Shown: positions 1,204-24,021 of the stretch, one piece after another
Numbering within the stretch: the stretch's first letter is position 1
Layout of the letters: each line of letters opens with the position of its first letter
Virus record (IMG/VR): IMGVR_UViG_3300038443_001555
Reading direction: 5' to 3' (one strand)
From: an uncultured virus (IMG/VR IMGVR_UViG_3300038443_001555)
Lineage: Duplodnaviria > Heunggongvirae > Uroviricota > Caudoviricetes
DNA length: 24,779 nt
Made by a program: the position numbers and the translations under genes
The notes under the pieces: generated by a model
The model's database searches: none
The model's input: only the letters and a program-made list of their open reading frames with translations
Told to the model about the DNA's origin: nothing

Positions 1204-4200
1204 GCTGCCTCCTTGAGTTCGCCACGCTTACGCATGCCGTCGTACATCTCGGCCAGACCCTTGTCGATCGCCTCACGAGTCGGGTAGGCGCCGATCTCGG
1301 TCTGGCGATAGAAGTTAGGGCCGAACGAGATGGTCGAGACCACCTCGAGGTCCATGGTTTTGTACGGCGCCGTCATCGCCGCGTGGCAGCGCGGCAAGAA
1401 CTCGTACAGGTCCTTGATGCGCACCGACCAGACCACCTCGTCGTGGATCGGGCCGTAGCAGATCGCATCGAAGTCGTAGGCCAGGTTGTCGCGCCACATG
1501 CGGCCCTCGGCTAACTTGGTCTGCTCGCCGGCCGCGCCCTGCACCTTGAAGTTCACCGCCTGGCGCTCGGCCTTGCTCTTGTCGAAGCTGGTGCCGTTCT
1601 GCAGCACGTCGCCAAGGTGGCGCACGGCGCCACCCAGCGTACGCACCACGCCGTTCTGCTTGACCTCGTCGCGGATCGCCTGCTTCCACTGCTCGGCAAC
1701 CGGATACATCGCCTCGCGCGCGTCCAGGAACAGCTGCGCGCGTTCGACCGAGATCATGAGCGTTGCGGCCACCTTCTCGGCCATGGCGCCGTATTCGGCC
1801 GTGAAGTTCACCTTCTTGCCCAGCGCGCGCACCTCCTTGGCCACCTTGTACATCTCGTCGCCTAGGGCTTTCTCCAGCGCGCGCTCGTAGTCCTCGTACG
1901 TCCAGTCCAGGCGCTGCTCTTCGCGGATGATGCCCAGCGCCGTAATGGTGTGCGGCGACTTGCGCTTCTCGCCCTGGAAGCAAGACAGTGCGTTCGGATC
2001 CTGCGACTGGAACGCAATCAGGACCATCTCCTGGGAGTCGAAGTCCATGGAGACGATGACGGCGTCCGGCCGGTGCGGCACGATCACCTCGCGGAACTTG
2101 GCCTCCTGCCCGTCGATCTTCTGGTGCTTGGGCAGCTGCTGCTTGTTGGGCTTGGATTCGCTGGCGCGCCGCGTCACCGTCGAGCACTGGTTGTGCTGCG
2201 AGCGCACGCGGCCGTCCTTCCAGTGCGGGAAGTACGGGTACTTCGAATAGAACAGCGAGCGGCGCGTGGTGACCATGCCCATCAGCTTCAGGGCCTCGAG
2301 CACAGCCTTCTGCTCCGGGTCGCACTCCTGCAAGGCGTAGGCGATCGCCAAGAGGTCAGTCTTGGGCGAGCCCTCGCGGATGCCGGCCTTCTTCATCGCG
2401 TCGGTCGGCATGTTGCGCACGCGGACCGGCAAGCCCATCACCTCGTACATCAGCTTTTGCATCTGCAGGGGCGAACCCTTGTTGAACTGCGGCTCGCCCT
2501 TGAAGTAGCTGCGCACGTAGGCGGTGAACTCCTTCCCGGCCGGCATCTCGTGCTCCGGATCGGTGTCCTTCGCTTCCACCAACCGCTGCAGCATGCCGGC
2601 GAACTGCAGGTGCGGCGTGTTCGCTTCGATGAACTTCACGATCTTCGAAGGCGTGCGCATCATCGTGTCCAGCACCTCGCCGGTCACGATGGTGTAGGCC
2701 TCCTTGATCTGCGCCGGCGTGATGTCGACCGTGTAGGTCGGCGGCGCCGTGCCGGCCCAACCTTGCTCGATCAGGTACTGGCGCACCACCGCCCAGGATG
2801 CCTCGTAGGTCTCGTCGTCCTCACGCTCGAGCTCCTTGCAGCGCGCGACCGACACCTCGGTGCCGTCGATGAAGTTCTTCGCGTGCTGGTAGGCCGCGTC
2901 GATCTCCACCTCGAGGTAGGTCTGCCAGCTGTGCTCAAGCTGCATGAACAGCTTGTAGTAGTTGTGCAGCGCAATCGTGCAGATTGTGTCGTCGCAGCCG
3001 TAGCCGACGACGTGCGTGGCCGGCAGCTCGTTCATCTTGTAGCGGCGCGTCTGGGTCTTCACGACCGGCTGGCCGTCGACCTCGACCAGCTCCTGCTTCG
3101 TGATCTCGGTTGGCACCACGCTGGCGGCGATCTCTTCCTCGGTCAGCGGCTCGAAGCGGCCGGTGCCGACGGTGCGATATTCGTACTCCTCGCGCACCAG
3201 GCGGCCACCCTTGAACAACTGCGACGGGTGCGCGGTGATCACGCAGGTCTCGTCGTAGGTCTGCTGGCGGTAGCCCAAGGTGCCGTGCGACCGCTCCTTC
3301 AGGCCCGTCTTGATGTTCTCGTCGACGTAGTTGGCCTCGAACTTCGTATCCAGCACGTTGGGCAGGAAGCCGTGGTAGCCGTTGTCCATCTGGCGCGCGC
3401 CCCACTCATTGAAGAGCACGGCCAGCTCGAACGAGACGTTCTGAATCACCAGCGGGATCGCCTGCGGGATCTCGGCGATCGCGCGCCGCAGGTCTTCGCT
3501 CGCGATGTTGTCGGTATCGGCGTGGTCGACCGAGAAGTAGAACGTGTACTGGTTGTTCGGGCCGAACGTAAGCGCGAGACCCGTCAGCATCGAGCCGAAC
3601 ACGTCGACGCCGTCCGGGTCGCCCAGCGCGGCCAGCCATTCATCCGACTCGTCCGGCGTCGACGTCTCGATATCGAGCGACACCTCGCGCGATGCGAGGA
3701 TGTGCGGCTTGGCCCAGGCCCAGGCTTCCTTGAACATGGCGCCGGTGATCAATCGTTGCCGGCCGTAGTAGCCCTTCAGGCGCGGATCCCGATCAGTTGG
3801 CTGCAGCTGGCGCACCATGCCCGGCTCCCAGTGCAAGGGTTGGCGCATCGTGTTGACCCACTCGGGGCGCAGGCGCGCCAAGTCGAAGCAGCGGATCACT
3901 TGCGGCGCGTTGTCCAGGATCATCTGCAGCAACTTGTCCTGCGGGCCAGAGATGTAATCGGCCAGCGGCGACAGGTCGCTCCTGAGCAGCATGGCGTGGA
4001 TCTCGGCCAAGCCGTCGTAGCCGTACTGGTTGCACAGCTTCTCGAAGCTTTTCTCACCGAAGCCCGGACAGCCCTTGATGTTGTCCGACGAGTCGCCGAC
4101 CAGCGCCTTGTAGGTCGTGACCAGGTGATAGTCGAACGCGCCGTACTTGCAGAACTCGAACATCTGGTTGATCCAGGTCGAGACGCGCGCGCCCCAGGCG

Positions 4201-6714: not shown

Positions 6715-7338
6715 TCAGCTGTTGCGGGCGTCTTCGCCGCCCTTATCAAGCCGCGCCTCGGCCGCTTCGTCGCTGTATGCGTCCGGAAAGCGCTCGCGCA
6801 GCTTGGCGATGTTGTCGCGGGCGACGTCAATCAGATCGACGCCGATCAGGTAGGCCAGATCGACCAGCGCAGCCAGAATGGCTCGAACTTCGTGGATCAA
6901 GTCAACGACGCTCGGCTCAAGGCCGAATTCATCCTCGATACGCTGGGCGATGCGGCCGGCAGCAATCGTCAGGCGCCGCGACACACTGGCTAGTGCCATG
7001 TTCAGCGTGTCACGGCGAGTGATCTCGGCAGCTGGCGCCGCCGGCACGCGGCCGAACGTTTCGCCTTCCGGATCGAATTCACGGGTGATGATCGGCAGGT
7101 ACCAGAGCACGTCGCCGGACTCTTCAGCAATCAGCTGGCGAAAAGTTTTACCGGCATCCGGCCCCTTCTCGACGACGCTGTCCAGTGTCTTACCGTAGAT
7201 GCAGATGCGCTTGATGATGGTGGCGATCTCGCCGGTCTCGGTGGCCACGCCCAGCGCGGCGTGTTCCATGCGCGCGAAGACGGTCGGCAGTGGCTTTTCG
7301 GTGCGGGCCGCGAGGGCCGGGTATTCTGCGAAGTTCAT
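6715..7338 (-). CDS. MazG-like nucleoside triphosphate pyrophosphohydrolase
   Basis: LGVATETGEIATIIKR, AEESGDVLWY and the C-terminal NIAKLRERFP typical of phage MazG-like proteins. Confidence 0.88.
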   Translation of the reverse strand: MNFAEYPALAARTEKPLPTVFARMEHAALGVATETGEIATIIKRICIYGKTLDSVVEKGPDAGKTFRQLIAEESGDVLWYLPIITREFDPEGETFGRVPAAPAAEITRRDTLNMALASVSRRLTIAAGRIAQRIEDEFGLEPSVVDLIHEVRAILAALVDLAYLIGVDLIDVARDNIAKLRERFPDAYSDEAAEARLDKGGEDARNS

Positions 7339-7352
7339 GGGTGGGTCCTTTC

Positions 7353-8063
7353 TTATTTCATCGTTTTGAGAACTTTGACGATCGAGGCCTTCAGGTTCGG
7401 CTCAACTTCGGGCTGCTTCTTGAACCACTCGAGGTAATCCTTGGGCGTGTCCATCAGCAGCCGGCCGCGATACTTGCCGAAGGTCCAGCGATGGATCGTC
7501 GTCTCCTGGGTGGCGTGGAAGTCGCGCAAGGTGCGCCGGCCGGCGCGCGCCATCAGCTCCTTGAGCAGGCGGTGCGTGGTGGCCACGTCGGCCATCGCGC
7601 GGTGCGCTTCGTTCTTCGGAAAACCGAAATGCTCGCGCAAGGTCGGCAGCTTGTGGTTGGCAGCTTCCGGGATCAGGCGGCGCGCGTGAAACAGCGTGCA
7701 GACCGACGAGACGATGTTGCCGACCTTGCGCAGGCGCTTCTCGTCGAACGAGGCGTTGTGCGCGATCAGCACGATGTCGCGGCCGTCGAAGCGGCCGTCG
7801 AGATAGCCCGGTGTCGAGATGAACTCGTCCATCGTCGGCGCGGCGGCCACCATCTCCTGGGTGATGCCGTGCACGCCCTGCGCGCCCGGCTCGATTTCGC
7901 ATTCCGGATCGATCAGCGACTGGATCTCGCCGAGCACTTCCAGCGTGTCGGGGCAGATCTCGCGGAAAGCGACCTCGCAGGCCGGACCGGTCAGGCCAGT
8001 GGTTTCGGTATCGGCGATGACCCAGGCGATCTCGCGGACTTCTTCTTGTTGGACAGCTTCCAA
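7353..8063 (-). CDS. DEDDh 3'-5' exonuclease, ExoX-like
   Basis: ADTETTG, AHNASFD, CTL, AHRAMADV; C-terminal TFGKYRG...PKDYLEW domain as in exonuclease X; TTG start with GGAG SD. Confidence 0.92.
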   Translation of the reverse strand: MEAVQQEEVREIAWVIADTETTGLTGPACEVAFREICPDTLEVLGEIQSLIDPECEIEPGAQGVHGITQEMVAAAPTMDEFISTPGYLDGRFDGRDIVLIAHNASFDEKRLRKVGNIVSSVCTLFHARRLIPEAANHKLPTLREHFGFPKNEAHRAMADVATTHRLLKELMARAGRRTLRDFHATQETTIHRWTFGKYRGRLLMDTPKDYLEWFKKQPEVEPNLKASIVKVLKTMK

Positions 8064-8090
8064 GGTGGTTCTCCAGTGGTTGGGGTGTAG

Positions 8091-8117
8091 AAAAGGGACC
8101 TCCGAGGAGGTCCCTTT
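8091..8117 (-). terminator. Rho-independent terminator after the putative SSB gene
   Basis: Minus strand reads AAAGGGACCTC-CTCG-GAGGTCCC-TTTTCT, about 20 nt after the stop at 8137. Confidence 0.85.
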
Positions 8118-8136
8118 CGGTCAGGCTGGCGCTGCT

Positions 8137-8937
8137 TTATGCGAGGTTGCCTGCGTAGCGGGTGAAGTTGGCGACGGTCCAGCTCATGCTGCCGCGCGTG
8201 ACGACATCACAGTCGATACGCACGACCTGGGCACCCTCCGGCTGGACGAAGCCCTTGCCGATCTTGAAGGCCTGGTCCATCTGGTAGCGCTTGAAGGTAG
8301 CCTTCGAGGTCGGCGGCAGGCTGACCTGTGCCAGCGTGCCTTCCAGTTCCGGCATTTCCTTCTTGCCCTTGGCGCTCAGCTCGGTGATCGCCAGGCCAAG
8401 GACCACGCGCTCGGACAGGTTGGCTTTTTCATAGCCGATGCCCCTCAGCTTCTCGATGTAGTCAGCAATGTCCTCGCCCTTGGTCGTGGTCTTGCCGTCG
8501 TCCGAGTAGCGGACATGCTCTTTCGCCTCATCGCCGTCAACGCCCGGAGACACCACCCACTGATCCTGAAAAGTCAGGATCTCGGCGCCCATGCTTACGC
8601 CCAGCACGCGACCGGTGGATTTGTCCGTGATGTTGCCGTTGGTGATGACCAGCTGGCGCAGCGTGTCGAATTCCAGCGGGAAAGCGTTCTTCAGGGTTTC
8701 CAGTGGGTTCACCATCGGCTTGGCCTTGGCGACCTGGCCGCCGGTGGCTGCCGGCGCCGCGACCGCGGCGCTGGGCGACTTGGCTTCTTCCTTCGGCTGG
8801 GATGCCTTATGCTGCTCAGCTGCAGCAGCCAGGCGCTCCTGCGCCGAAGCGCGAGTTGCTGCGCCCTGGTCGACGGTTTCGTCGTCCGGAGCTTCGAAGG
8901 CCGGGGTCTGTGCTGCGGTGTTTTTGATCAGTGCCAT
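8137..8937 (-). CDS. putative single-stranded DNA-binding protein (266 aa)
   Basis: Start moved to ATG 8937 (AGGA SD). Has its own promoter and terminator inside the replication module, a gene 32-like leader pseudoknot, a low-complexity N-terminus and a beta-rich core. Function is inferred, not homology-proven. Confidence 0.6.
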   Translation of the reverse strand: MALIKNTAAQTPAFEAPDDETVDQGAATRASAQERLAAAAEQHKASQPKEEAKSPSAAVAAPAATGGQVAKAKPMVNPLETLKNAFPLEFDTLRQLVITNGNITDKSTGRVLGVSMGAEILTFQDQWVVSPGVDGDEAKEHVRYSDDGKTTTKGEDIADYIEKLRGIGYEKANLSERVVLGLAITELSAKGKKEMPELEGTLAQVSLPPTSKATFKRYQMDQAFKIGKGFVQPEGAQVVRIDCDVVTRGSMSWTVANFTRYAGNLA

Positions 8938-8962
8938 TTTCGTTTTCCTATCATTGTCGTTG

Positions 8963-8995
8963 TGCCGGGTCAGGATCCCACGCCCGGCATGTGGG
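8963..8995 (-). promoter_or_regulatory. H-type mRNA pseudoknot in the 5' leader (gene 32 operator-like)
   Basis: CCCAC-A-UGCCGGG-C-GUGGG-AUCCUGA-CCCGGCA: S1 5 bp, L1 single A, S2 7 bp, 7-nt loop, all Watson-Crick pairs. Confidence 0.8.
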
Positions 8996-9004
8996 TGAAG
9001 ATTC

Positions 9005-9033
9005 AGTATGGCAAACTTCTTGTGCTGTGTCAA
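9005..9033 (-). promoter_or_regulatory. sigma70-type promoter for the putative SSB gene
   Basis: TTGACA (9033-9028), 17 bp spacer, TGc-CATACT (9010-9005) with an extended -10 TG. Confidence 0.85.
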
Positions 9034-11967
9034 TTAATTCTTGAAAACATCGACACCAAGTTTTGCCAGCTCGTTGACGTCGAACGTGTACACGCCCGGC
9101 ACCTGCAGGCCGACGCCGGTGCCCTTCTTCACGAAGGCGCTGCTGTCCTGGATCGAGTGCGCGAAGCTCTCAGGGCTGGCAAACAGCGCCTCAAGGCCCG
9201 TCGAGCGGCAGTACATGCGGTAGCGGTGGTAGGCCGTGCGCACTGCGATCTCGACGCAGTCGCGCCCGCCCAGCGTCGTAAACGCATACTCGGAGCCGCG
9301 ACGCATCGCGTCGGGCCGCGTGGCCTCGACGTGGTGGCTCATGCTCGCGATCTCGGCCAACACCTTGACATACTCCGGCGTGGTCGCCGCATGCAAGTCG
9401 ACCAGGCGCGCGTAGGTGCCCTCTTCCATCTCGGCCATGATCCCGTCGAAGCGGTCGCCGAAGATGTCGGCCACCACCTTGCGCAGCTGGCGGAAGCCGA
9501 ACTTGGCCACCGTATGGTTGTAGACCGGGCGTTCCTTGGTGTTCTGCTTGTCCTGCAGCACCTCGGCCGACACGCCACCCTTCAGGTCCTCCTCGGACAG
9601 CATGAAGCGGCGCTTGGCGTCCAGGTACATCTCGTCGAACTCCTTGATGAACGCCTCGCCATTACCCTCGTTGAGGATGCTGGCGGCAAGGTACTGGCCG
9701 ACGATGCCGAGCAGGTGACGATTGCGCCAGAACGCCTGCCAGTGTGCGTGGTTCTTCAGGCCCTGGCTCTGCGGTGGGCGGGCCAAGGTGACCAGCACCA
9801 CGCGCTCCATCACCGCGGCTTCCTCCTCGGCCGCCTCGGCGATGAAGGCCATGGGCGCGGCCATCTGCGAGAACTGCAGCACGCGGTAGTCGTCCGACTC
9901 GCGTGAGCCGCCGCCGCGCGCCTGGTCACGCTGGTTGTACACGTCGCGGAACAGGCCCTTGAGCGCGTCGACCCGGGCCTTGACCATGACGTGCGGCTTG
10001 TACTCGTCGAGGATCAGCGGGATCGACGAAGAAGCCATCAAGTGCTGCAGCAGCGCGAAGTTGGTCGAGCCAGGAGAGAGCGGCCGCGGCTCGCCGCGCC
10101 AGTAGAACAGCGAAGCGATGCCGATGTTCTGCTCGGTCTTGCCCAAGCCCGCCGGGCCGTTGACGTGCAGCAGCGGGAACTTGCCGTAGTGCTTCTGGAA
10201 CAGCTGCTTCCAGAAGCAGGCCGTGTACCAGCCCAGCATCTTGCCCAGCACCTCGGGGCGCTGGCAAGAGAACAGGTGCTCAAGCGTATCGCCCAGCAGC
10301 TCGCGATTGTCCGGCGACTCGATCCACTCGGCCAGCGCCGGCGCGCCCGAGATATCGGTCTTGAACACGCCGCGCGGGTCTGGAAAGCCTGCAAACTTGA
10401 TCTTCAAACCGGTATCGGCGATTTCCGGCTCGAGCTTCACGCCGTGGTTGTCAGCCCAAACCATGAACGGCTCGCGCAGGCGCTCGTTCTCGTGGTGCGG
10501 AATGCTGATGATGTCGAGACCTTCGCGCGTCACGACGTAGTTGATATTGCCTTTCTTTTTTGCCTGTTCGACGAAGCGCATCATGACCGTCCTGACCTGG
10601 GCATCGTTGCCTTGGAAGGCATGCCCGTATTTTGAAACGAACCTGTTAAAAGGGACCAGCCCGCTGAACATGTCGAGCTCGAGCGTCACGGCGCCCATCG
10701 GGCGGCCGTTGACCAGCACCTGGGCGTCGTAGCCGATGATCTGGTCGGTGTCACTCGAACGCAGCACAGTGGCCGTGTCGAACGATACCGCGCAAATGCG
10801 CTTCTTGCCGAACTCGCCGTCCATGTAGACACCATACTTCGACAAGGTCACGCCCTTGGCCACATCGCCATACTCGTCCTGCTCCGGGTCATCCACCTGC
10901 GTCGCCGCAATCTCGATCTCCTCCTTGATCTCTTCCTTCGTAGCAGCAATGCCGTCGAGGTCCGGCGCCGGGTGCGACAACAGGGTCTTGATGGCGCCGA
11001 CCGAGAACTCGTAGCACTGGTTGCCATCCATGTAGCGGTGCATGCGGCGCAGCTCGTTGGCGCGCCGCTCGGGCGTGCCGTAACGGGTGCTGTCGCTCTG
11101 GTGGTTGTTGATCAGGCCGTCGCACTCGACCACGAACCTGTCCTCCGACATGCCGGCCGCCACCGCGGCGATCGCCAGCTGCGTCGCAATCTCCTGAAAG
11201 CCAGTACCAGGCTTGATGCCCATGCCAGCCATCATCCACTGGATCGACGCGCACGACGCCTTCTCGCGCACGGCCGGATCGGGCTTGAAGCGCGCGCGCT
11301 TCTTGAGCAGGTCCTCAACCTTCTGCGCCGCCTTCGAAAATTCAATCGACAGCTTGACACAGAAAGCCGGGGCCTTCACCTCAACCGCATCGCGCGGTGC
11401 CGAAGTCAGCTCGACCGCAAGGTCGGGCGTCATCTCGCGCATCTCGCGCACCGTGATGGGCACCTTGTAGCGCCCGTTGGAACGCTTCACGTTGGGCGTG
11501 CGCCACATGCGGCCACGCCCGGCCGAATAGATCTTCAGGTCGAGCGTGTCGACGATCAGCGACAAGGCCATCTCGCGGTAGATCATCGGCAGACCGATCG
11601 TGCCGCCCTTGGGCACCTTGTCCATGAAGACCTGCTGCGGCACCTCGACGTGGTAGCCGCGGCCGCCCGTGGCAAACAGGCGGCACATCGACAGATCAAC
11701 GCCGAGGGCTTCCAGCTTGTCGAGATATTCGTTGACCTTGATGATGACCAAGGACTCGTCCTCGGAGTCGAAGTCGCTGTAGAACGGCCCGTCATAGGCC
11801 AGCTTCAGCTTCTCCTCGAACGAAAGGTCGGCGACCAGCTTGGACACCGACAGCACGGTCATGAAGACTGGGCGCAGATCCTTGAGGACCTGCTCGCGAT
11901 GGGATACCGGAACCGGCTGCCATTCCTCCTCGCCACCCTGGATTTGGTAGTAGTGAAAAGAGCTCAT
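9034..11967 (-). CDS. primase-helicase: N-terminal AEP primase-polymerase fused to a C-terminal P-loop helicase
   Basis: FYSDFDSED (DxD), ATGGRGYHV, DLKIYS..RMWRTPN; Walker A GPAGLGKT, Walker B LILDEYK, and an ER arginine-finger-like motif. Confidence 0.88.
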   Translation of the reverse strand: MSSFHYYQIQGGEEEWQPVPVSHREQVLKDLRPVFMTVLSVSKLVADLSFEEKLKLAYDGPFYSDFDSEDESLVIIKVNEYLDKLEALGVDLSMCRLFATGGRGYHVEVPQQVFMDKVPKGGTIGLPMIYREMALSLIVDTLDLKIYSAGRGRMWRTPNVKRSNGRYKVPITVREMREMTPDLAVELTSAPRDAVEVKAPAFCVKLSIEFSKAAQKVEDLLKKRARFKPDPAVREKASCASIQWMMAGMGIKPGTGFQEIATQLAIAAVAAGMSEDRFVVECDGLINNHQSDSTRYGTPERRANELRRMHRYMDGNQCYEFSVGAIKTLLSHPAPDLDGIAATKEEIKEEIEIAATQVDDPEQDEYGDVAKGVTLSKYGVYMDGEFGKKRICAVSFDTATVLRSSDTDQIIGYDAQVLVNGRPMGAVTLELDMFSGLVPFNRFVSKYGHAFQGNDAQVRTVMMRFVEQAKKKGNINYVVTREGLDIISIPHHENERLREPFMVWADNHGVKLEPEIADTGLKIKFAGFPDPRGVFKTDISGAPALAEWIESPDNRELLGDTLEHLFSCQRPEVLGKMLGWYTACFWKQLFQKHYGKFPLLHVNGPAGLGKTEQNIGIASLFYWRGEPRPLSPGSTNFALLQHLMASSSIPLILDEYKPHVMVKARVDALKGLFRDVYNQRDQARGGGSRESDDYRVLQFSQMAAPMAFIAEAAEEEAAVMERVVLVTLARPPQSQGLKNHAHWQAFWRNRHLLGIVGQYLAASILNEGNGEAFIKEFDEMYLDAKRRFMLSEEDLKGGVSAEVLQDKQNTKERPVYNHTVAKFGFRQLRKVVADIFGDRFDGIMAEMEEGTYARLVDLHAATTPEYVKVLAEIASMSHHVEATRPDAMRRGSEYAFTTLGGRDCVEIAVRTAYHRYRMYCRSTGLEALFASPESFAHSIQDSSAFVKKGTGVGLQVPGVYTFDVNELAKLGVDVFKN

Positions 11968-12529: not shown

Positions 12530-13975
12530 CTACGGGAAAATCAGATTTTTGATGCCCTGCTTCGAGCCCGACGCGCGGTTGACCAGCTCATCGTTGGCGA
12601 AGAGGTTCTTCAGCAGCTGCTCCTGGATCGTGCCGCGCGCCACGAACAGGCGAATGTTCGGGTTGTAGCGCTGGCCCTTCCGGTCGATCCGGCCGGACGA
12701 CTGGATGAACGGGATGGTCGTGGTCGGGATCTGCACGAAGCCGCACTCCCAGCACAGGTACTGGGGGTTCAGGCCGGCACCGGCGCTGCCGGGTTGGGCC
12801 GTCAGGCAGACCGTATTCGGGTCTTCCATGAACTGCTTCACCGAGCGCTTCGAATCAACCTCCGAATACGCCAGTACGCCGCGCTTGCCGATCTCGGCAA
12901 GTCGTGCATCCATGTGCGCGCCGATCAGCCTAGACACGCTGCGGTGCGTGGTCCAGAGGATCAGCTTGCTGGCTGGCAGAGTTTGCTCGCCGATCAGGAT
13001 CTCGCCGCCAAGGTTGATCTCGTCGGCCACGCCGTCGACCAGGTCGAAAATCGCCGAACGCTTCGTCTCATCGCCAGCGAAGTAGCCGAAGTCCAGCACG
13101 ATCTGCTGGGCCGCGTGGTAAAGCCTTGTCGCGGTGGTGGCATCAATCTTGCTTCCGTCGTCCAGCAGCAGGAGCTGCTCTTCCATCAGGCGCTTGTACA
13201 GCGCCATGTGCTCCTTGCTCAGGTCGTAGTAGACCGGGATGTAGTTCGCCTTGGGCAGCGCGCTATGCACTTCCTCCTTCGTGCGGCGAATGCGGCGCAG
13301 GTCCAGATTCGCCTGCAGCACGTCAAGGTTGTGCCACACCTTCGGCTGCTTGAAGACGTCCCGCTCGGCAACGTGGATGTTTTCGAACTGGGCGTAGCTG
13401 GCATAGACCTCAGGCGAGTTCAGCTTCACGTAGCTATAGCCATCGCCGGGCTTGCTCATGATCGTGCCTGACATCATGATCAGGTCACGGCCGCCGGCCG
13501 TAAAGTTGCGCACGTTCTTGAAAAGCACGCCGCGACCCTTGAGCGCCTGCACCTCGTCGACTACGGTCAGCACCTCGCAGCGCAGCAGGTCCTTCGAGAG
13601 CCGGCCGATGTCGTTGTTGAAGACCTGGTACGACATGACCAGCCAGCGCGCGCCACGCACCGGCAACCCCTTGCGCGCCGCCGGCGACCCGGTATAGGCG
13701 ATCGCCTGGCCAGCGCCCGGGATGCTGTTGAGCCAGGCTACCCACTGGGCGATCAGGATGGGCGGCACCAGCACGATGGTCGTGTCAGGCTGCAGGATCA
13801 GCGAAACTGCAGTAGCCACCAAGGTCTTACCGTACCCAACCGGGAGATCCAGCAGTGCACGACGCCATACTGCAGCGCGCTCGATGTCTTCGCGTTGCAG
13901 AGGGTCGAGCGTCATGACACCGCCCAAGGGGTGCGGAAAAGGGTACTTCTCGATAACCTGATCCAGAGTCAGCAT
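12530..13975 (-). CDS. SNF2-family (SF2) helicase
   Basis: DLPVGYGKT, VLVPP, VVDEVQ, MSGT, GAGLN, QSSGRIDRKGQ. Confidence 0.92.
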   Translation of the reverse strand: MLTLDQVIEKYPFPHPLGGVMTLDPLQREDIERAAVWRRALLDLPVGYGKTLVATAVSLILQPDTTIVLVPPILIAQWVAWLNSIPGAGQAIAYTGSPAARKGLPVRGARWLVMSYQVFNNDIGRLSKDLLRCEVLTVVDEVQALKGRGVLFKNVRNFTAGGRDLIMMSGTIMSKPGDGYSYVKLNSPEVYASYAQFENIHVAERDVFKQPKVWHNLDVLQANLDLRRIRRTKEEVHSALPKANYIPVYYDLSKEHMALYKRLMEEQLLLLDDGSKIDATTATRLYHAAQQIVLDFGYFAGDETKRSAIFDLVDGVADEINLGGEILIGEQTLPASKLILWTTHRSVSRLIGAHMDARLAEIGKRGVLAYSEVDSKRSVKQFMEDPNTVCLTAQPGSAGAGLNPQYLCWECGFVQIPTTTIPFIQSSGRIDRKGQRYNPNIRLFVARGTIQEQLLKNLFANDELVNRASGSKQGIKNLIFP

Positions 13976-14667
13976 ACTTCCCTCCTTCGCCCAAACCGCA
14001 CCGCCTGCTCAGCCATGAATTTCTCGTTTAACTTTCTGCCCTTACGAAGATTGCACTTTACCGTCAGCAACTGGATATTGCTGTCAACATTCTTACCGCC
14101 GTTCACTAGGGCAAGAATATGGTCCATGTGGTAGCCGAATTTTCGAAGTGGCCGCTGACAGGGGCAGGCACATCGTCCTTGCTGCTTACCCCACAAGGTC
14201 TCTACTAGATCCGTGGAAAGCTCACCTTCGCTGGTCCCAGCCCGCGCGCGTCGGTTATGGGCATAGAGGCGCGTTTTCTCAGGCTTAGAACGCTTCCACT
14301 TTCGGCATGCTGCTGCATGCTGTTCCGAGTTCGCAGCCAACCAGGCAGCGTTTGTGGCCGCAGTCCGCTCCACATTTCGGGCGCGCCATGCCGTGATATT
14401 CGCTTTCTGCCGCTCAACGTTCGCCTCTAGCCACGCTTTTTGCGTGGCCCGGCGACGTTCACGGTTAGCCGCCACCCACGCCTGAGAAATCCTTCGCTCA
14501 CGCTCAGGATTGGCCGCGCGGCGACGTGCAGCCTTTTCCTTAAAACACGCTAGGCAGCCGCGACTTGAGACGTTACGCTCTGCCGTATGGCCGCGAGAAC
14601 ATGCCTCGCCGGTGAAGTACCTAGTGAGGCCTGCATCGCGAGCCTCAGACCAGCTAACCACCTGCAT
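13969..14667 (-). CDS. free-standing HNH homing endonuclease (232 aa)
   Basis: Start moved to 14667 (GGAGG SD). N-terminal YFTGEACSRGH...CLAC zinc module, Arg-rich helix, C-terminal CACPC...DHILALVNGGKNVDSNIQLL..CNLRK. Visibly more AT-rich than flanking genes. Confidence 0.9.
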   Translation of the reverse strand: MQVVSWSEARDAGLTRYFTGEACSRGHTAERNVSSRGCLACFKEKAARRRAANPERERRISQAWVAANRERRRATQKAWLEANVERQKANITAWRARNVERTAATNAAWLAANSEQHAAACRKWKRSKPEKTRLYAHNRRARAGTSEGELSTDLVETLWGKQQGRCACPCQRPLRKFGYHMDHILALVNGGKNVDSNIQLLTVKCNLRKGRKLNEKFMAEQAVRFGRRREVC

Positions 14668-15100
14668 GGTCAAGCCTCCTCTGTGCAAGCAGTCGCAGTA
14701 GTGGGTACGCCTGCTCAACGATCTGGCCCGACGCCGGCTGCTCGAGCTGGCGCGCGAATTCGCGCAGCGGCAGCAGGCCGGCCACATCGAGCAGCGGCTC
14801 GCCGCCAACGCACGCGCCGTAGCCTTGAGTGATCAGAATCGAGTACAGGCCGTTCTGCGCCGCATCGTAAGACAGCGGCGGTCGGTCCATCTCCATGGAC
14901 AGCCACAGCAGGTTGGCCAGGCCCGGGTTGCTGGCCGCGACCACACCGAAGCCCTGCGGCTTGCCGTCCGGCCGGGCCCAGATCCATGCCTGCGGGTTCG
15001 GCATCCAGTAGGGCCGGGCAAGGTGTTCGCACATGGCGCGCACCTTGCCCATCTCCGGGCTGTGATCCGGCTCAGGTCTGCTCTGGAAGAACAGCGGCAT
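14654..15100 (-). CDS. hypothetical protein (about 148 aa)
   Basis: Start MPLFFQ at 15100 overlaps the upstream stop (TGATG). Confidence 0.7.
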   Translation of the reverse strand: MPLFFQSRPEPDHSPEMGKVRAMCEHLARPYWMPNPQAWIWARPDGKPQGFGVVAASNPGLANLLWLSMEMDRPPLSYDAAQNGLYSILITQGYGACVGGEPLLDVAGLLPLREFARQLEQPASGQIVEQAYPLLRLLAQRRLDHAGG

Positions 15101-15638: not shown

Positions 15639-16630
15639 TCAGCGGCTCCCGTAGTACGCTTCGAGGAACGCTTTCGCTGCGTAGACATTGATTGCATTGC
15701 CCGCACCCCGCAGGAGAGCCACGCGGCCGGATACCCCATGAGCCAGAGGGAATGTGCCGGGTTCAACTGGCCGCCACTTTCCATCCCTGCAGAAGAGCCA
15801 GTCAGCATCTGCCCAGTAGCCGTTAGTCGGGCCGGGCCGTCCGTCACCGACCAGGACGCCATGGTCGGCAGATCCGTCCCGCGCAGCGTGTCCGCCGTCG
15901 GATCCGTGCCCTTCAGACCGTCCGCCGCGCGCGGCGTCGGCCAGCCCGCTAGGTTCCACGACACCACGTCCACCGTCTTGCGGCTGCTGTCGTTGTTCCC
16001 CGCCGCGTTGTTGCCGTTTTGCGCCGGCGTGCCCGCCATCGGCGTCGGCCAGCCCGCCAGATGCGCGGTCGGCGTCAGGTACGCTCCGTTCTGCCCAGGG
16101 CCGCCCTTGGGACCGTCGCCCGCCATAGGGGTCGGCCACCCAGTCAAGTTCGCCTGGCGCGGCAGCTGGTCGAGGCGCTCCGATCCGTCCGAGCGCGGCT
16201 TGATATCCGCTCCCGAGTCCTTCCAGTCGCGCGACGTTGGCGTCACCCAGCCAGTACGCACGGTCTCGGATGTGCGGGGCACCGACGCCCGCAGACGGAA
16301 ACGCGACCGCCGCGAGGGCGTATCCCAAGCCTTCCATGTCAGCTTGTACAAGGTCGATCCAAGGGTCGACAGCACGGCTTGCAACCTGCTCTCCAACGAC
16401 GACTGGAGGACGGCCGACGCGGATGAGGTGGTGGAAATGGGGCCATAAGTGCCGCTCGTCAGCAAACCCAGCTCCTTCGCCCGCCGCGGAGAAAGGCTGG
16501 CAAGGGCAGCTTCCAGTCCAGAGAGGCTCGGTGTCGGGGATGCCTGCGAGACGCAGTGCAAGTGGCCAGCCGCCGATGCCGGCGAAGAAATGGCATTGGG
16601 AAAATCCGGCAAGGTCTCCGGGTGTGACAT
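15635..16630 (-). CDS. C5 DNA methyltransferase beta-like polypeptide in the +1 frame (TRD-like repeats plus motif IX)
   Basis: AAGGAG SD 8 nt before ATG 16630; four GW(P/V)TP repeats; QLNPAHSLWLMGYPAAW matches motif IX; stop overlaps the deaminase ATG. Confidence 0.78.
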   Translation of the reverse strand: MSHPETLPDFPNAISSPASAAGHLHCVSQASPTPSLSGLEAALASLSPRRAKELGLLTSGTYGPISTTSSASAVLQSSLESRLQAVLSTLGSTLYKLTWKAWDTPSRRSRFRLRASVPRTSETVRTGWVTPTSRDWKDSGADIKPRSDGSERLDQLPRQANLTGWPTPMAGDGPKGGPGQNGAYLTPTAHLAGWPTPMAGTPAQNGNNAAGNNDSSRKTVDVVSWNLAGWPTPRAADGLKGTDPTADTLRGTDLPTMASWSVTDGPARLTATGQMLTGSSAGMESGGQLNPAHSLWLMGYPAAWLSCGVRAMQSMSTQRKRSSKRTTGAAE

Positions 16631-16739
16631 CTTCGATACTCCTTTCGTCGACCACGCCCGGCGCGATCAGGTTCTCTTGGATCAACTCTCGCAGCCAGGC
16701 AGCGGCCGCGGAGTCAAATTCGTTATAGTAGGCGGTCAT
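15639..16739 (-). CDS. C5 cytosine DNA methyltransferase, catalytic (alpha) polypeptide
   Basis: FFAGIGG (I), GSCPCQPFSAAG (IV), DERHLW (V), GEQV (VI), HIRDRAYW (VIII), LRGAGNAI (X). Confidence 0.93.
   Translation of the reverse strand: MTAYYNEFDSAAAAWLRELIQENLIAPGVVDERSIEDVTPGDLAGFSQCHFFAGIGGWPLALRLAGIPDTEPLWTGSCPCQPFSAAGEGAGFADERHLWPHFHHLIRVGRPPVVVGEQVASRAVDPWIDLVQADMEGLGYALAAVAFPSAGVGAPHIRDRAYWLGDANVARLEGLGSGYQAALGRIGAPRPAAAPGELDWVADPYGGRRSQGRPWAERSVPDADRASGGLADADGGHAGAKRQQRGGEQRQQPQDGGRGVVEPSGLADAARGGRSEGHGSDGGHAARDGSADHGVLVGDGRPGPTNGYWADADWLFCRDGKWRPVEPGTFPLAHGVSGRVALLRGAGNAINVYAAKAFLEAYYGSR
15932..16057. repeat. 18-nt direct repeat CGGCGTCGGCCAGCCCGC (15932-15949 and 16040-16057)
   Basis: Exact copies encode AGWPTP in the beta frame; degenerate copies lie near 16127-16141 and 16238-16252. 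Confidence 0.85.
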
Positions 16740-17044: not shown

Positions 17045-17379
17045 CGGCGCGCCTCCCTCGGCGCCGTGCGCAGGATTTCGTACAGGTTGGCGCCCCAGGT
17101 GCGCTCCTGCCCGACTTCGCAGGCGGTCCAGTAGGCGTAAGCGAACGTGGCCAGCCGGTCGACGCGGCGCAGCAGTTCCTGCTTCACTTCCGGCAGCGGC
17201 TTGGCCGGCCAGTAGGCCGCGGTGTCGAGGCCGGCCTTGCGCGCATGCTCACGCAGCGACTCGACCATCTGCTCAAGGCTTTCGATGTGGTCGGCCGCGG
17301 CGAGACGCACCTCGCGCATCTCGTCGAAGGTAAAGCCATGGCCGTTGCGCAGCTTGCCTAGGATTTCGTGGCAGGTCAT
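17041..17379 (-). CDS. hypothetical protein (112 aa)
   Basis: ATGA overlaps on both sides; AGGAGG SD. Confidence 0.75.
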   Translation of the reverse strand: MTCHEILGKLRNGHGFTFDEMREVRLAAADHIESLEQMVESLREHARKAGLDTAAYWPAKPLPEVKQELLRRVDRLATFAYAYWTACEVGQERTWGANLYEILRTAPREARR

Positions 17380-18227
17380 CGCGCCTCCTGCACCAGCGCG
17401 TCGATCAGCACGCCCAGCTCGCGTGTCATCAGGGCGACGTCGCTGTCAAAGCGGTCAGCCTCGACCACGCCCTCGCGCTCCTTCAGGATGTCCAGCGGCT
17501 TGATGCGACGCAGCTGCATGTTCTCGGTCATGACGAACGACACGCGGCTGTCGTAGGTCATGGCGACCTGCGCCACGGCGGCACCGGCGGTCAAGTGGTT
17601 CAATACGTCCAGGCCCTGCGCCGACGCGCGCTCGAACTTCACGACCTTGCCCTTCTCGCCCGGGTACTGCAGCACCACGGCGTCGTCGATCGTGAAGTCG
17701 GCCGGCTCGTCTTCCAGCCAGCTGGTCACCACCTTGGCGCGCGGCCAGGTCACGTCCTGGAACTGGAGGGAGTCGCCGAAGGTTTTGATGAGTACGCGCA
17801 GGATGTCGTCGGCCGCGCTGGGCGAGGCCGTGTCGACCACGATGCGGTGCTGGTCCTGGTCGATCCAGACCAGCGTCGAACGGTGTGAGGTCAGCGCGCG
17901 CGGCAGCAGCTCATCGAATGCGCGCTCCTTGAGCTCTTTGAGCGCCTTTCGGCCGGGCGGGAAGCCTTGCTGCTCTTCCAGTTCCGCCGCGCGCGCCTCG
18001 ACTACCTGGCGCACAGCCGAGCTCGGGATAACCTTCTTCTCGGTCATGAACTTCAGCAGGATGTGCTTGCCCTGCTTGTAGGCCAGCTCGCCGTCGCGCA
18101 CTGGCACGAAGCCGGACGAGACCAGGTCGAGGCGACCGATGGGAACAAAACGAGCAGCCTGCAGCTGCTCGAGATCGAAGTGGGCTTTCGGCGAGATGCC
18201 GTAGATGGTTGCGTTCTTGGGCCACAT
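17376..18227 (-). CDS. rdgC: recombination-associated protein RdgC
   Basis: MWPKNATIY, SSGFVP, EKKVIPSSAV, ELLPRA, VVDTAS, SFVMTENMQLRRIK, FDSDVALMTREL. Confidence 0.93.
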   Translation of the reverse strand: MWPKNATIYGISPKAHFDLEQLQAARFVPIGRLDLVSSGFVPVRDGELAYKQGKHILLKFMTEKKVIPSSAVRQVVEARAAELEEQQGFPPGRKALKELKERAFDELLPRALTSHRSTLVWIDQDQHRIVVDTASPSAADDILRVLIKTFGDSLQFQDVTWPRAKVVTSWLEDEPADFTIDDAVVLQYPGEKGKVVKFERASAQGLDVLNHLTAGAAVAQVAMTYDSRVSFVMTENMQLRRIKPLDILKEREGVVEADRFDSDVALMTRELGVLIDALVQEAR

Positions 18228-18259: not shown

Positions 18260-18288
18260 AGGGTAAGCAAACTTCTGAGTTGTGTCAA
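18260..18288 (-). promoter_or_regulatory. sigma70-type promoter for the rdgC-MTase-helicase-primase operon
   Basis: TTGACA (18288-18283), 17 bp spacer, TACCCT (18265-18260), in an AT-rich divergent intergenic region. Confidence 0.7.
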
Positions 18289-18380
18289 AACAATTTTCTC
18301 TGGTCAATACCTCCTCGGCAAGTTTCTGTGGTTTGATTTCCTTCTGTCAAGTTGCGGCTTTACTTCAGGCAAGAAGCGTG

Positions 18381-18400
18381 CCAGAATTCTTGCATTCTGG
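18381..18400. promoter_or_regulatory. inverted repeat upstream of the plus-strand cassette
   Basis: CCAGAAT-N6-ATTCTGG, about 10 nt before the AGGAG SD of the 18421 gene. Confidence 0.5.
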
Positions 18401-18420: not shown

Positions 18421-18891
18421 ATGTCCGCACTGACCGACGCATACGAAAACAAGCAGATCGACTTCCTGTTCCGCGGCCAGGCGCTTGGCCTGGCTAACTC
18501 TACCGCTGCCGCCGGCAGCGGCCCGGCTACGTGGTATGTCGGCCTGATCACCGCAGCAGGCAGTGATTCCGCTGTCGGCACCGAAGTGTCCGGTGGCAGC
18601 TACGCGCGCGTGGCGGTCACGTCGTCGCTCGCGAATTGGGCAGGCACCCAGGGTGCAGGTACCACGACCGCATCGACTGGCTCGAGCGGTACCACCTCGA
18701 ACAACAACACGATCACCTTCCCGGCGCCGACCGCGAACTGGGGCACGGTGGTCGAGTTCGCTCTTTTCGACTCGTTGACCGGCGGAACCGAAGCGATCCG
18801 CGCCTCGCTCTCCACCTCGAAAACGATCAACTCCGGTGATCCGGCACCGTCGTTCGCCGCTGGCGCGCTGACCTTCCAGATCGACAACTAA
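18421..18891 (+). CDS. phage virion fibre subunit-like protein (156 aa)
   Basis: Recognisable phage family pattern: YENK..DFLFRG, YVGL, TEVSGGSYARVAV, ITFPAPTANWGTV, DSLTGG, KTINSGD..SFAAGAL; AGGAG SD. Confidence 0.75.
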   Translation: MSALTDAYENKQIDFLFRGQALGLANSTAAAGSGPATWYVGLITAAGSDSAVGTEVSGGSYARVAVTSSLANWAGTQGAGTTTASTGSSGTTSNNNTITFPAPTANWGTVVEFALFDSLTGGTEAIRASLSTSKTINSGDPAPSFAAGALTFQIDN

Positions 18892-22211: not shown

Positions 22212-22363
22212 TGAGCGAAGTCAAGTTCGACGCCACGGCCTTGCTGGCCGCCCAGCGCCGCGCCGCAGAAGACGCCGCCAAGCAGGCGGCAGCGGCGGCC
22301 CAGCAGCCGGCCGCGCCGGCTGCGCCAGTGAAGCCGCCGGTCTACATCAAGGTCAGGCCGTAA
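22211..22363 (+). CDS. 50-aa Ala/Pro-rich peptide, not in the ORF track
   Basis: TGATG overlap and GGAGG SD; MSEVKFDATALLAAQRRAAEDAAKQAAAAAQQPAAPAAPVKPPVYIKVRP. Confidence 0.7.
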   Translation: MSEVKFDATALLAAQRRAAEDAAKQAAAAAQQPAAPAAPVKPPVYIKVRP

Positions 22364-23144
22364 TCCCTGTGATGTCCTCGAGCGTGCGCTTGACGCCGTT
22401 CTTGGGCATCATCATGACCTGACCGGTCGACTTCTCCAGGCCGACGTAATTGCGGTAGACGTTCGGGTCGTTGACCAGCTCCGGATGGTCGCGCACCAGC
22501 TCGGCGGCGCGCCGCAGATCCTCGTCCTTGGCATAGATGCAGAACACGCAGGAAAAGCGCCGCATACCCATGCGGTAGACGATGTGAGGCTGCTGGCCGG
22601 CATGGGCGATCATGGCGTACACGTACTTCTCGCTCCAGCTGTGCACCGGCAGCCACTCATACCATTCGCGGCCGGCCTTGCTGTTGGTCGCGTCGAATTT
22701 GAAGGGCACCATTTTCTTGCGCTTCGTGCTCTCCTCAGCGCGCAGGCCCTGGCAGTTCACCACCAGATGCCAGGCCGGATGGCCGGCCGCCTTGCGGGCG
22801 TAGGTCAGGTGCCGGATCACCTTCGTGATCGGGCCGCGCTTCAGGTCGGAAGTGCACTGGCGCTGCTCAGGCGACGGAAACATGCCGCGCTCCTCGACCA
22901 TCTGCAGCAAGTCGCGCCGCGCACGGCAGACATGCAGCGGCTCGCCGCTCGTCGTCGCCTGGATGTGCTCGAGCGCGCCGGCCCACTCCACGCGGCCAAG
23001 GTCGGCATGCACGATCACCAGCTGCTCGCGCGGCACCATGCTCCGCAGCAGCAGGTACATCGCCTGACTGTCCTTACCGCCGGAGTGGTTGACGACGAAC
23101 AGCGCGCCGCGCCGGATCAGGGTCGGGATCTCGGCCGGGATCAC
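22353..23144 (-). CDS. PAPS-reductase/DndC-like PP-loop protein (263 aa)
   Basis: GTG start at 23144 (GTGA overlap); NHSGGKDS, QCTSDLKRGPI, GLRAEES..R, LPVHSWS, YRMGMRRFSCVFC. Confidence 0.9.
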   Translation of the reverse strand: MIPAEIPTLIRRGALFVVNHSGGKDSQAMYLLLRSMVPREQLVIVHADLGRVEWAGALEHIQATTSGEPLHVCRARRDLLQMVEERGMFPSPEQRQCTSDLKRGPITKVIRHLTYARKAAGHPAWHLVVNCQGLRAEESTKRKKMVPFKFDATNSKAGREWYEWLPVHSWSEKYVYAMIAHAGQQPHIVYRMGMRRFSCVFCIYAKDEDLRRAAELVRDHPELVNDPNVYRNYVGLEKSTGQVMMMPKNGVKRTLEDITGITA

Positions 23145-23347
23145 GGCTCGATCCCCAGCTTGCCGCGCACAGCGTGCGCGACTGCGATCTTGACCGTGCT
23201 GGGCATGACGTGCTGCAGCCGCAGGCCCGGCGCCTTCACGCGGCAGGCGGCCAGATGGTCCTGCGCTGGCGCCAGCAGCACCTTCTCCAAGGCCTCGCCC
23301 CAGCTCTCGGCTTCCACTTCGTGGACCATGGTGACGACGATTTTCAT
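23141..23347 (-). CDS. hypothetical protein (68 aa)
   Basis: GAGGAG SD; 4-nt overlaps with both neighbours. Confidence 0.75.
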   Translation of the reverse strand: MKIVVTMVHEVEAESWGEALEKVLLAPAQDHLAACRVKAPGLRLQHVMPSTVKIAVAHAVRGKLGIEP

Positions 23348-24021
23348 TTTCTCTCCTCGACAATCTTGATAACGGTTTTCCGGCGCGCGCCGTGCGCTTC
23401 GAACGCGACAATAGCATGCCGGTTTGCCTTCTGGCAAAGCTGGCAGGTCGCACAGGTGACGTATTCCTTGAACTGGGCCGGGCACAGCGTGACCTTGTGA
23501 CCGGCCGGCGTCGCGCCAGCATCCCAACCAGGCGGCACCACCACCACGAGCGGCAGGCCAAGCGGTGCGAGGCGGTCGGCGTCGGCGAGCGAATCGGCCG
23601 ACAAGTTGATCGTAAAGCCTGCCTTGTTGGCGGCGCGCAGCAGCTTGAGGTTCTCCTTCGTCGGCGGATAGTGGGTGTAGGTAAAGGCGCGGCGACCGCG
23701 GTTCGCCTTCACCAGATCGCGCAGTGCCGCGGCGTCGATCGCATCGTGCTGGCCCGGCAGGTCGCCGGCCTGGTTGTGGCGCCACAGCTGGCCCTTGGGC
23801 AGCCGCCGGATCTCGTCGAGGAAGGATTCCCACGGCACGCCGCGCTCGCCGCGCGTCACGCGATCCCAATGGATCGCGAGTGGGAAGTTTTCGGCATAGC
23901 AGCCGTTCTCCTTAAAAGAACAGGTCGACGGACACGTCGACCTGCTGGAAGTTGAGACTGGGATGGGGCCGGTCTTGGCGTTGCTCGAGGCCCGGGTAAG
24001 GTGGACTGGTGGCTGGGTCAC
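23344..24021 (-). CDS. Gp88-like / radical-SAM-like Cys-rich phage protein (225 aa)
   Basis: NAKTG, TCPSTCSFKENGCYA, RHNQAGD, FTYTH, NLSAD, CPAQ...CATCQLC, FEAHG. Confidence 0.75.
   Translation of the reverse strand: MTQPPVHLTRASSNAKTGPIPVSTSSRSTCPSTCSFKENGCYAENFPLAIHWDRVTRGERGVPWESFLDEIRRLPKGQLWRHNQAGDLPGQHDAIDAAALRDLVKANRGRRAFTYTHYPPTKENLKLLRAANKAGFTINLSADSLADADRLAPLGLPLVVVVPPGWDAGATPAGHKVTLCPAQFKEYVTCATCQLCQKANRHAIVAFEAHGARRKTVIKIVEERK

Follow-up and report, generated by a model that had tools for sequence, protein, structure and literature searches.

The gene for a 266-amino-acid protein, here called P0001, in an uncultured phage (IMG/VR record IMGVR_UViG_3300038443_001555) is preceded by a leader containing an H-type pseudoknot that is conserved among close homologues. 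The whole 24,779-nucleotide (nt) stretch of DNA that was analysed is referred to as the window. All elements of the leader and its gene lie on the minus strand, and positions are those of the whole window. The open reading frame (ORF) of P0001 (8137..8937) encodes a probable single-stranded DNA-binding protein (SSB) with a fold resembling the one seen in phage T4’s gene 32 protein (gp32). A preliminary description of this DNA had proposed that the leader is a pseudoknot of the gene 32 type through which an unrecognised SSB controls its own synthesis. By sequence comparison, the pseudoknot is real and conserved and not a product of chance, with the homologues providing the decisive evidence. 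That the leader works as a gene-32-like autogenous translational operator, which may also protect the 5′ end of the message, is in our analysis an evenly balanced proposition.

The pseudoknot (8995..8963) begins after the 9 nt that follow the −10 hexamer of the promoter and reads CCCAC-A-UGCCGGG-C-GUGGG-AUCCUGA-CCCGGCA, with the sequence and stems given in the preliminary description. Stem 1 (S1) has 5 base pairs (bp), formed by 8995–8991 with 8981–8977, and stem 2 (S2) has 7 bp, formed by 8989–8983 with 8969–8963. Loop 1 (L1) is a single A at 8990, the junction nucleotide is a C at 8982, and the 7-nt loop 3 (L3) covers 8976–8970. By a rough estimate, the pseudoknot has an energy of −18.6 kcal/mol, the sum of stacking (−28.2) and an initiation penalty (9.6) with loop terms left aside, whereas the most favourable nested structure has −14.8 kcal/mol. 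Taken alone, this one sequence is weak evidence, because the leader folded with nested pairs only is unremarkable (z = −0.19, with 80 of 200 shuffles folding equally well). We scanned both strands of the whole window for the knot geometry, using Watson-Crick pairs only and allowing an S1 of at least 5 bp, an L1 of 1–2 nt, an S2 of at least 7 bp, a loop 2 (L2) of 0–1 nt, and an L3 of 3–10 nt. Three distinct sites were found, all on the minus strand; 30 dinucleotide shuffles average 0.23. The second site, CCAGA-AU-GCAAGAA-U-UCUGG-CACGC-UUCUUGC at 18369..18400, is located between two divergent genes, where it lies upstream of the promoter of rdgC and adjoins a plus-strand gene that begins at 18421. 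The third (13608..13642) falls within the helicase ORF and is probably a chance occurrence.

Relatives of P0001 were collected by a word-indexed search, which returned 65 proteins, and by an exhaustive search, which returned 337 representative clusters at 50% identity; their DNA came from 25 viral and 21 metagenome loci. The window, L001–L011, and L026 constitute a close clade with proteins 48–80% identical, L026 being the only close leader contributed by the metagenome loci. An H-type pseudoknot is present at the homologous position in all 13 close-clade leaders. When these leaders are shuffled, any such knot appears in 1–11 of 100 trials. S1 occurs as CCCAC/GUGGG, CCCUC/GAGGG, UCCCC/GGGGA, UCCCU/AGGGA, UCGCC/GGCGA, or CUCCCC/GGGGAG, and S2 as UGCCGGG/CCCGGCA (in a G-U form in L002), GCCGAGC/GCUCGGC, GACCGGA/UCCGGUC, GUCAGC/GCUGAC, or GCCGCC/GGCGGC. 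Both stems are wholly replaced in L010 (UCGCC/GGCGA and GUCAGC/GCUGAC). In a MAFFT alignment of nine leaders, 96.2% of the cells are paired, versus 26–50% with slid partners. We searched 182 kb with a covariance model in which S2 alone is encoded. It identified 12 leaders at E < 1e-3, and elsewhere only weak reverse-strand echoes of the palindromic S2. To recover L010 (E 0.019), the filters had to be switched off, and L012 was missed by the model.

The 12-sequence alignment built on the S2 model (A5) has 94.9% of its cells paired, versus 22–56% with slid partners. Double-sided changes occur in 5 of its 12 pairs, and its covariation score was reached by none of 500 shuffles. S1 lay outside the model fit; it is 100% paired, with covariation in three of five pairs. 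S2 is 91.6% paired and covaries in two of seven pairs, and just 5 of the 12 sequences have the outermost U-A pair. Both stems thus covary in the upstream regions of homologues, a comparison that the preliminary description had put forward as a check on the knot. Since the leaders are related to one another, the covariation statistics overstate their independence. This relatedness does not affect the controls with slid partners or the exchange of both whole stems in L010. In the 12 leaders that were parsed, S1 starts 6–9 nt past the −10 hexamer, corresponding to predicted positions +1 to +4. In these leaders, L1 consists of one or two A residues, L2 of a single C where it is present at all, and L3 of 3–10 nt of unconserved sequence. 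Rfam has no relevant match for the leader (E ≤ 10) or for 16 related loci (gathering threshold), which says little because Rfam has no model for the T4 operator.

The pseudoknot is followed by a 25-nt A-rich tract (8962..8938) containing the Shine-Dalgarno (SD) sequence AGGA (8949..8946), and then by the AUG at 8937. The tract is 56% A and 36% GC, and its minimum free energy (MFE) is 0.0 kcal/mol, in keeping with the unstructured stretch that had been described there. For comparison, the window has a GC content of 63.7%, and random 40-mers drawn from it have an MFE of −10.5 ± 4.3 kcal/mol. In the 13 close-clade leaders, the region from knot to AUG measures 25–45 nt, with 30–36% GC, 38–59% A, and an MFE of 0 to −3.9 kcal/mol. 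UUAA is enriched in these tracts, with 14 occurrences observed and 3.0 expected, a count reached by none of 1000 shuffles. At least one UUAA is found in 10 of the 13 leaders, frequently as (A)CUUUAA repeats.

Transcription of the gene is assigned to a near-consensus sigma70-type promoter (9033..9005) that matches 10 of 12 consensus positions. The −35 hexamer TTGACA (9033..9028) lies right behind the TAA stop codon (9036..9034) of the upstream primase-like gene. The −10 hexamer CATACT (9010..9005) has TG in front, making it an extended −10 element, and the 17-nt spacer between the hexamers includes a motif, AGAAGTTTGC, that is kept in relatives. The preliminary description had named the same hexamers and spacing, and the promoter is the sole promoter-like site in 7000..10000 (shuffle mean 0.4). 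Its geometry predicts a transcription start near 8998, within a zone (8998..8996) that is 7 to 9 nt past the −10 hexamer and would leave 1–3 unpaired nt ahead of the pseudoknot, so that the predicted leader spans 8998..8938. The spacer is 17 nt long in every one of the 12 parsed leaders. Each of five complete relatives has a single exact copy of the promoter pattern, and G002 has an extra match with two mismatches. The one-gene unit ends in an intrinsic terminator (8118..8087), also noted before, with a 12-bp stem, a tetraloop, a U-run, and a folding energy of −24.1 kcal/mol (z = −4.0). A hairpin and a T-run past the stop codon are found in 14 of the 17 loci inspected; L012 has the hairpin with no clear T-run, and L014 and L024 have neither. 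Covariation is also seen in the terminator stems of the relatives’ loci. In L024, a tRNA gene (3733..3805) is located immediately 3′ of the SSB-family gene, where other loci carry the terminator.

An inverted repeat, TTGAC-N4-GTCAA, takes in the −35 hexamer about 95–110 nt before the ATG and could serve a dimeric regulator of transcription as its operator. The repeat is perfect in L001, L004, L010, L011, and L026, and has 1–2 mismatches in the remaining close relatives; the window has a weak version (TTGACACAGCACAA). A second promoter of like kind (18260..18288, minus strand), with TTGACA, a spacer ending in AGAAGTTTGC, and TACCCT, precedes rdgC (17376..18227). It heads the leftward replication operon and is the window’s only other promoter with this spacer motif, which may mark a class of phage promoters. 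The rdgC leader is short and unstructured and has no knot. Hence, the knot belongs to the P0001 gene and not to the promoter class, and we rejected the idea that it is a generic feature of this phage’s promoters. We also scanned viral contigs with the promoter motif. At least 116 stretches match, and among the matches listed 11 have the full promoter, namely 10 loci already in our set and L107. L107 is from an unrelated 36-kb viral contig and has TTGACA, a spacer ending in AAAGTTTGC, and then CATACTGA; its leader forms a simple 5′ hairpin, CCCCG-UAU-CGGGG, ahead of a different gene.

We predicted the structure of P0001 with AlphaFold2 from the 65-sequence alignment, and obtained a model with a predicted local distance difference test score (pLDDT) of 85.4. 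The protein is laid out as a disordered acidic N-terminus, a helix at residues 25–45, which is the only ordered part of the N-terminus, a low-complexity linker, and a gp32-like OB-fold core at about 75–266, where the score is above 90. In a Foldseek search of the PDB, the best matches are the gp32 core of RB69 (E 4.4e-3, probability 0.97) and T4 gp32 (E 1.3e-2); none is at E ≤ 0.001. In a ranking of chains by VIA-align, the top five structural matches are all gp32-type SSBs. Among the 40 BFVD matches at E ≤ 1e-3, most are unnamed and ranks 17, 21, and 32 are named SSBs; a fourth named SSB at rank 42 (E 1.5e-3) is slightly above this threshold. The OB fold that the preliminary description expected from structure prediction and Foldseek is present in the model. 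Its assignment of the protein as an SSB gained support from the gp32-type matches, from the replication module around the gene, and from the complete relatives, where no other SSB could be recognised. Specifically, PF00436, PF08804, and PF10991 gave no match in any of the five complete relatives, which were searched in place of the window’s whole genome; as controls, PF08804 finds T4 gp32 and PF10991 has no working control. The P0001 family is single-copy in each of them. We consider P0001 probably an SSB of gp32-like fold, outside the Pfam gp32 family (PF08804).

Attempts to name P0001 by sequence all failed, including Pfam, PHROGs, a PDB profile search, tblastn, and a scan of genome contigs. 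Pfam has no match for P0001 at E ≤ 0.01, nor at E ≤ 1 for P0001 and 31 relatives, and PHROGs has none for P0001 or 28 relatives. A profile search finds nothing among PDB sequences at E ≤ 10, and tblastn of P0001 against 50,697 phage records gave no match. All that an Atlas search returned were viral clusters without names and a tenuous link to PF23977 (Pam3_Gp34). The zinc site of gp32 is made up of a His and three Cys. P0001 contains one Cys and hence has no zinc site of this type. An N-terminal peptide, MALxK...P.FEAPDD (residues 1–20), is strongly conserved ahead of the disordered low-complexity linker. It may be a tip for protein interaction or self-association, placed at the N-terminus rather than at the C-terminus as in bacterial SSB. 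The core extends to the C-terminus, leaving no acidic C-terminal tail or domain.

We compared the leader with the gene 32 operators of T4-type phages. According to its record, the T4 leader reads UGCC-A-GCUAUGA-GGUA-AAGUG-UCAUAGC at −67..−40, with an S1 of 4 bp and an L3 of 5 nt, and after the knot comes an A/U-rich stretch of 39 nt that contains UUAAA repeats. The leader of RB27, which is of the T2 type, reads UGACC-A-GCUAUGA-GGUCA-UACAUCG-UCAUAGC, and TATAAT lies 8 nt upstream of its knot. Therefore, the geometry given in the preliminary description for T2, T4, and T6 is right for the T2 type, because RB27 has a 5-bp S1, an A as L1, a 7-bp S2, and a 7-nt L3; it does not hold for T4 itself. 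Direct comparison with RB27 also bears out the statement that the window’s knot matches this geometry apart from one junction C, with unrelated sequence. In T4, T2, and RB69 as in the window, the leader belongs to a gene for a gp32-fold SSB (a probable one here) and carries a 5′-proximal H-type knot in which a single-A loop spans a 7-bp S2; the 5-bp S1 and the 7-nt L3 are shared with the T2 type. Only a few nt separate the knot from the 5′ end of the mRNA (a predicted end in the window), and an unfolded A-rich tract with the ribosome-binding site comes after it. UUAA repeats occur in 10 of the 13 close-clade leaders. The differences are a lack of similarity in the stems (UGCCGGG here and GCUAUGA there) and in the loops, one junction nucleotide, a tract of 25 nt without UUAA in the window compared with about 39 nt, a phage that is not T4-like, and a protein without the zinc site or a match to the Pfam gp32 family.

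Other known systems are less close. We take DUF2815, the namesake of the Rfam family RF03084 (‘DUF2815 RNA’), to be the same Pfam family as PF10991 (Enc34_ssDNA-bd). RF03084 is likewise a candidate structured leader tied to phage SSB-type genes, but it does not match the window and belongs with a different protein family, PF10991 having no match in the five complete relatives. In the literature on SSB pseudoknot operators, we found only the T4/RB69 work and unrelated papers. The T4/RB69 work states that gp32 nucleates at the knot and then cooperatively covers the UUAAA/UAAA repeats over the ribosome-binding site, that repression requires both the knot and the UUAA(A) tract, and that RB49 lacks the knot (PMC3014915, PMC535899). 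One of these papers also describes gp32 as a Zn(II) metalloprotein (PMC3014915). The gp32-type phage SSBs include T4 and RB69 gp32 and the phiC31 gp3/TG1 gp25 group (PMC11795197). P0001 shares with the gp32 family an OB-fold single-stranded DNA (ssDNA)-binding core of gp32 topology in its model. It differs from all of these proteins in having no detectable sequence-level relationship to them, one Cys and no Zn(II) site, an acidic conserved peptide at the N-terminus, and no C-terminal tail.

The mechanism that we infer, from SSB function and the transcription start to RNA binding, cooperativity, and repression, is as follows. P0001 would be the SSB of phage replication, a zinc-less and very distant structural relative of T4 gp32. 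Its gene would be expressed as a self-contained unit inside the replication operon, with its own strong host-type promoter, leader, and terminator. The mRNA would open, 0–3 nt from its 5′ end, with the compact pseudoknot, and continue into the unfolded A-rich tract with the ribosome-binding site. Free SSB in excess of the available ssDNA would nucleate at or beside the pseudoknot and spread cooperatively along the unfolded tract, so that the SD sequence and AUG become blocked, as by T4 gp32 on its own message. The 5′-terminal knot would probably also shield the message from 5′-end-dependent decay. This mechanism is favoured by the covariance model, which matches solely the leader of the SSB gene in 182 kb, and by the gene-specific promoter pattern. 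Several points weigh against it. The fold scores of the P0001 model are modest, and the protein has an acidic, disordered N-terminus in place of a basic N-terminal cooperativity segment. The window’s own tract is short and has no UUAA or UUAAA-type repeats like those of the T4 operator, and family members that are more distant (30–38% identical) do not have the knot. Moreover, H-type knots commonly reach their steric optimum with a 1-nt L1 over a 6–7-bp S2, and therefore a match in geometry by itself says little about whether the function is shared.

The extreme 5′-terminal position would suit a plain stabiliser of the mRNA just as well. The pseudoknot would then only protect the mRNA of a protein needed in abundance against 5′-end-dependent attack by RNase E or RppH, and the tract would be an efficient unfolded initiation region, without any feedback. 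A 5′-terminal stabilising stem-loop is known from the ompA 5′ untranslated region, among other bacterial mRNAs. The leader resembles such elements in having a structure a few nt from the predicted 5′ end (S1 at predicted +1 to +4 in the 12 parsed leaders) and in belonging to a message that is likely highly expressed, as the strong promoter and own terminator are typical of such genes. Distant relatives too start with a hairpin of variable sequence just after −10, and L107 combines the same promoter type with a simple 5′ hairpin before a different gene. The gene 32 mRNA is itself unusually stable and is called the most stable T4 message in the T4 work (PMC3014915, PMC535899). However, a plain hairpin would suffice for stabilisation, yet the element is a pseudoknot in which selection acts on each of the two stems, and these are kept by compensating changes in 13/13 close leaders. 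The UUAA enrichment and the long conserved unfolded tract would be unnecessary for that purpose, and the rdgC promoter has no 5′ structure downstream. We regard stabilisation alone as the main rival, unlikely though deserving of serious attention; a stabilising role is compatible with the operator.

The leader could instead be the target of another effector, such as a phage or host RNA-binding protein, a small RNA, or a small-molecule ligand in the manner of a riboswitch. Small H-type pseudoknots act elsewhere as ligand or protein sites, with the preQ1 and SAM-II riboswitches as examples of the former. For the latter, the S15 rpsO operator is cited as a pseudoknot protein site in one T4 study (PMC3014915). 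The leader and promoter are gene-specific, and the TTGAC-N4-GTCAA repeat across the −35 hexamer in several relatives hints at extra regulation. Riboswitch pockets, however, conserve loop and junction positions, which vary here as described (L3 of 3–10 nt, L2 of 0–1 nt, L1 of A or AA), and we rejected a riboswitch because these nucleotides are not conserved. No Rfam family matches, and the sole constant companion of the leader is the gene product itself. Another effector is thus improbable, more so than a plain stabiliser. As for the complementarity being a functionless by-product of GC-rich sequence, the unexceptional nested fold and the two further pseudoknot-like sites in the window are what such an origin would give. 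Against it stand the knot at the same position in every close leader, despite proteins only 48–80% identical, the double-sided changes in both stems, and slid-partner controls that pair only 22–56%, so that we find chance hardly credible. The operator accordingly stays the reading that we carry forward, at the even balance stated above.

The leaders of distant family members are built differently. Of the 16 distinct leaders scanned from these distant members, only 2 gave any knot; the knots do not lie at the homologous position and are no more frequent than chance would give. In L013–L025 and L027–L044, the approximately 75 nt before the ATG comprise a TATAAT-type −10 hexamer, hairpin 1, a linker (UUGACA or UUGGCA), hairpin 2, and an A-rich tract with the SD sequence. 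Hairpin 2 is GGCCG-GAAAGAA-CGGCC, with a GAAAGAA loop, and is 86.7% paired with covariation in four of five pairs. Hairpin 1 is variable in sequence and covarying, and is 64% paired on a poorer alignment. Kissing or pseudoknot pairing between the twin hairpins is seen in single sequences only. These leaders have no match in Rfam.

The P0001 gene sits between a primase and a DnaQ-like exonuclease. The primase-like gene (9034..11967, minus strand; PHROG ‘primase’, E 2e-35) is directly upstream of the SSB-gene promoter, and the replication module further includes a helicase, a family A polymerase, a ligase, a deoxynucleoside monophosphate kinase, and RdgC. The phage is far from isolates; its polymerase is at most 30% identical to those of 84-kb Vibrio phages. 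A family A polymerase with a best cultured match of 30% identity agrees with the earlier view that the phage is not T4-like. An HNH/endonuclease VII-like ORF (13969..14808, minus strand) lies between the helicase and the upstream ORFs of this module. A 402-residue protein resembling 3′-phosphoadenosine-5′-phosphosulfate (PAPS) reductase and an adjoining DUF7227 protein (E 3e-91) are encoded at 22353..24021 on the minus strand, and a C5 cytosine methyltransferase at 15639..16739; these three genes may form a DNA-modification module. For the plus-strand ORF at 18421..18891, the Pfam match is Gp80 (E 1e-31), the podophage GP4 fiber I protein, which points to a podophage-like virion and marks the beginning of the rightward structural genes.

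The RNA motif and the protein family are both absent from Rfam, Pfam, and PHROGs. The analysis adds an RNA motif not in Rfam, and suggests that a widespread family of proteins outside Pfam and PHROGs probably functions as SSBs. How gp32 selects its own message is still debated. What is new is a second case of the same knot geometry, unrelated in sequence and supported by covariation, before a barely recognisable gp32-fold SSB of a lineage that is not T4-like. Because its stems and loops vary naturally among relatives, it can be used as an independent system to ask whether shape alone nucleates an SSB on RNA. Tentatively, and as something possible rather than probable, a 5′-terminal nucleation structure followed by an unfolded tract may be a general self-limiting rule, ancient or repeatedly reinvented, for gp32-fold SSBs beyond T4-like phages. 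In such a scheme, the family would be a large, unannotated group of zinc-less SSBs (337 clusters at 50% identity, none found to include a cultured phage), in which the protein core and the one-gene cassette of promoter, leader, and terminator stay constant. The nucleation structure would have been swapped between clades, from a T2-like pseudoknot to twin hairpins with a UUGACA linker and a GAAAGAA loop. If so, the family would provide a natural series for how an SSB distinguishes its own mRNA from other RNA.
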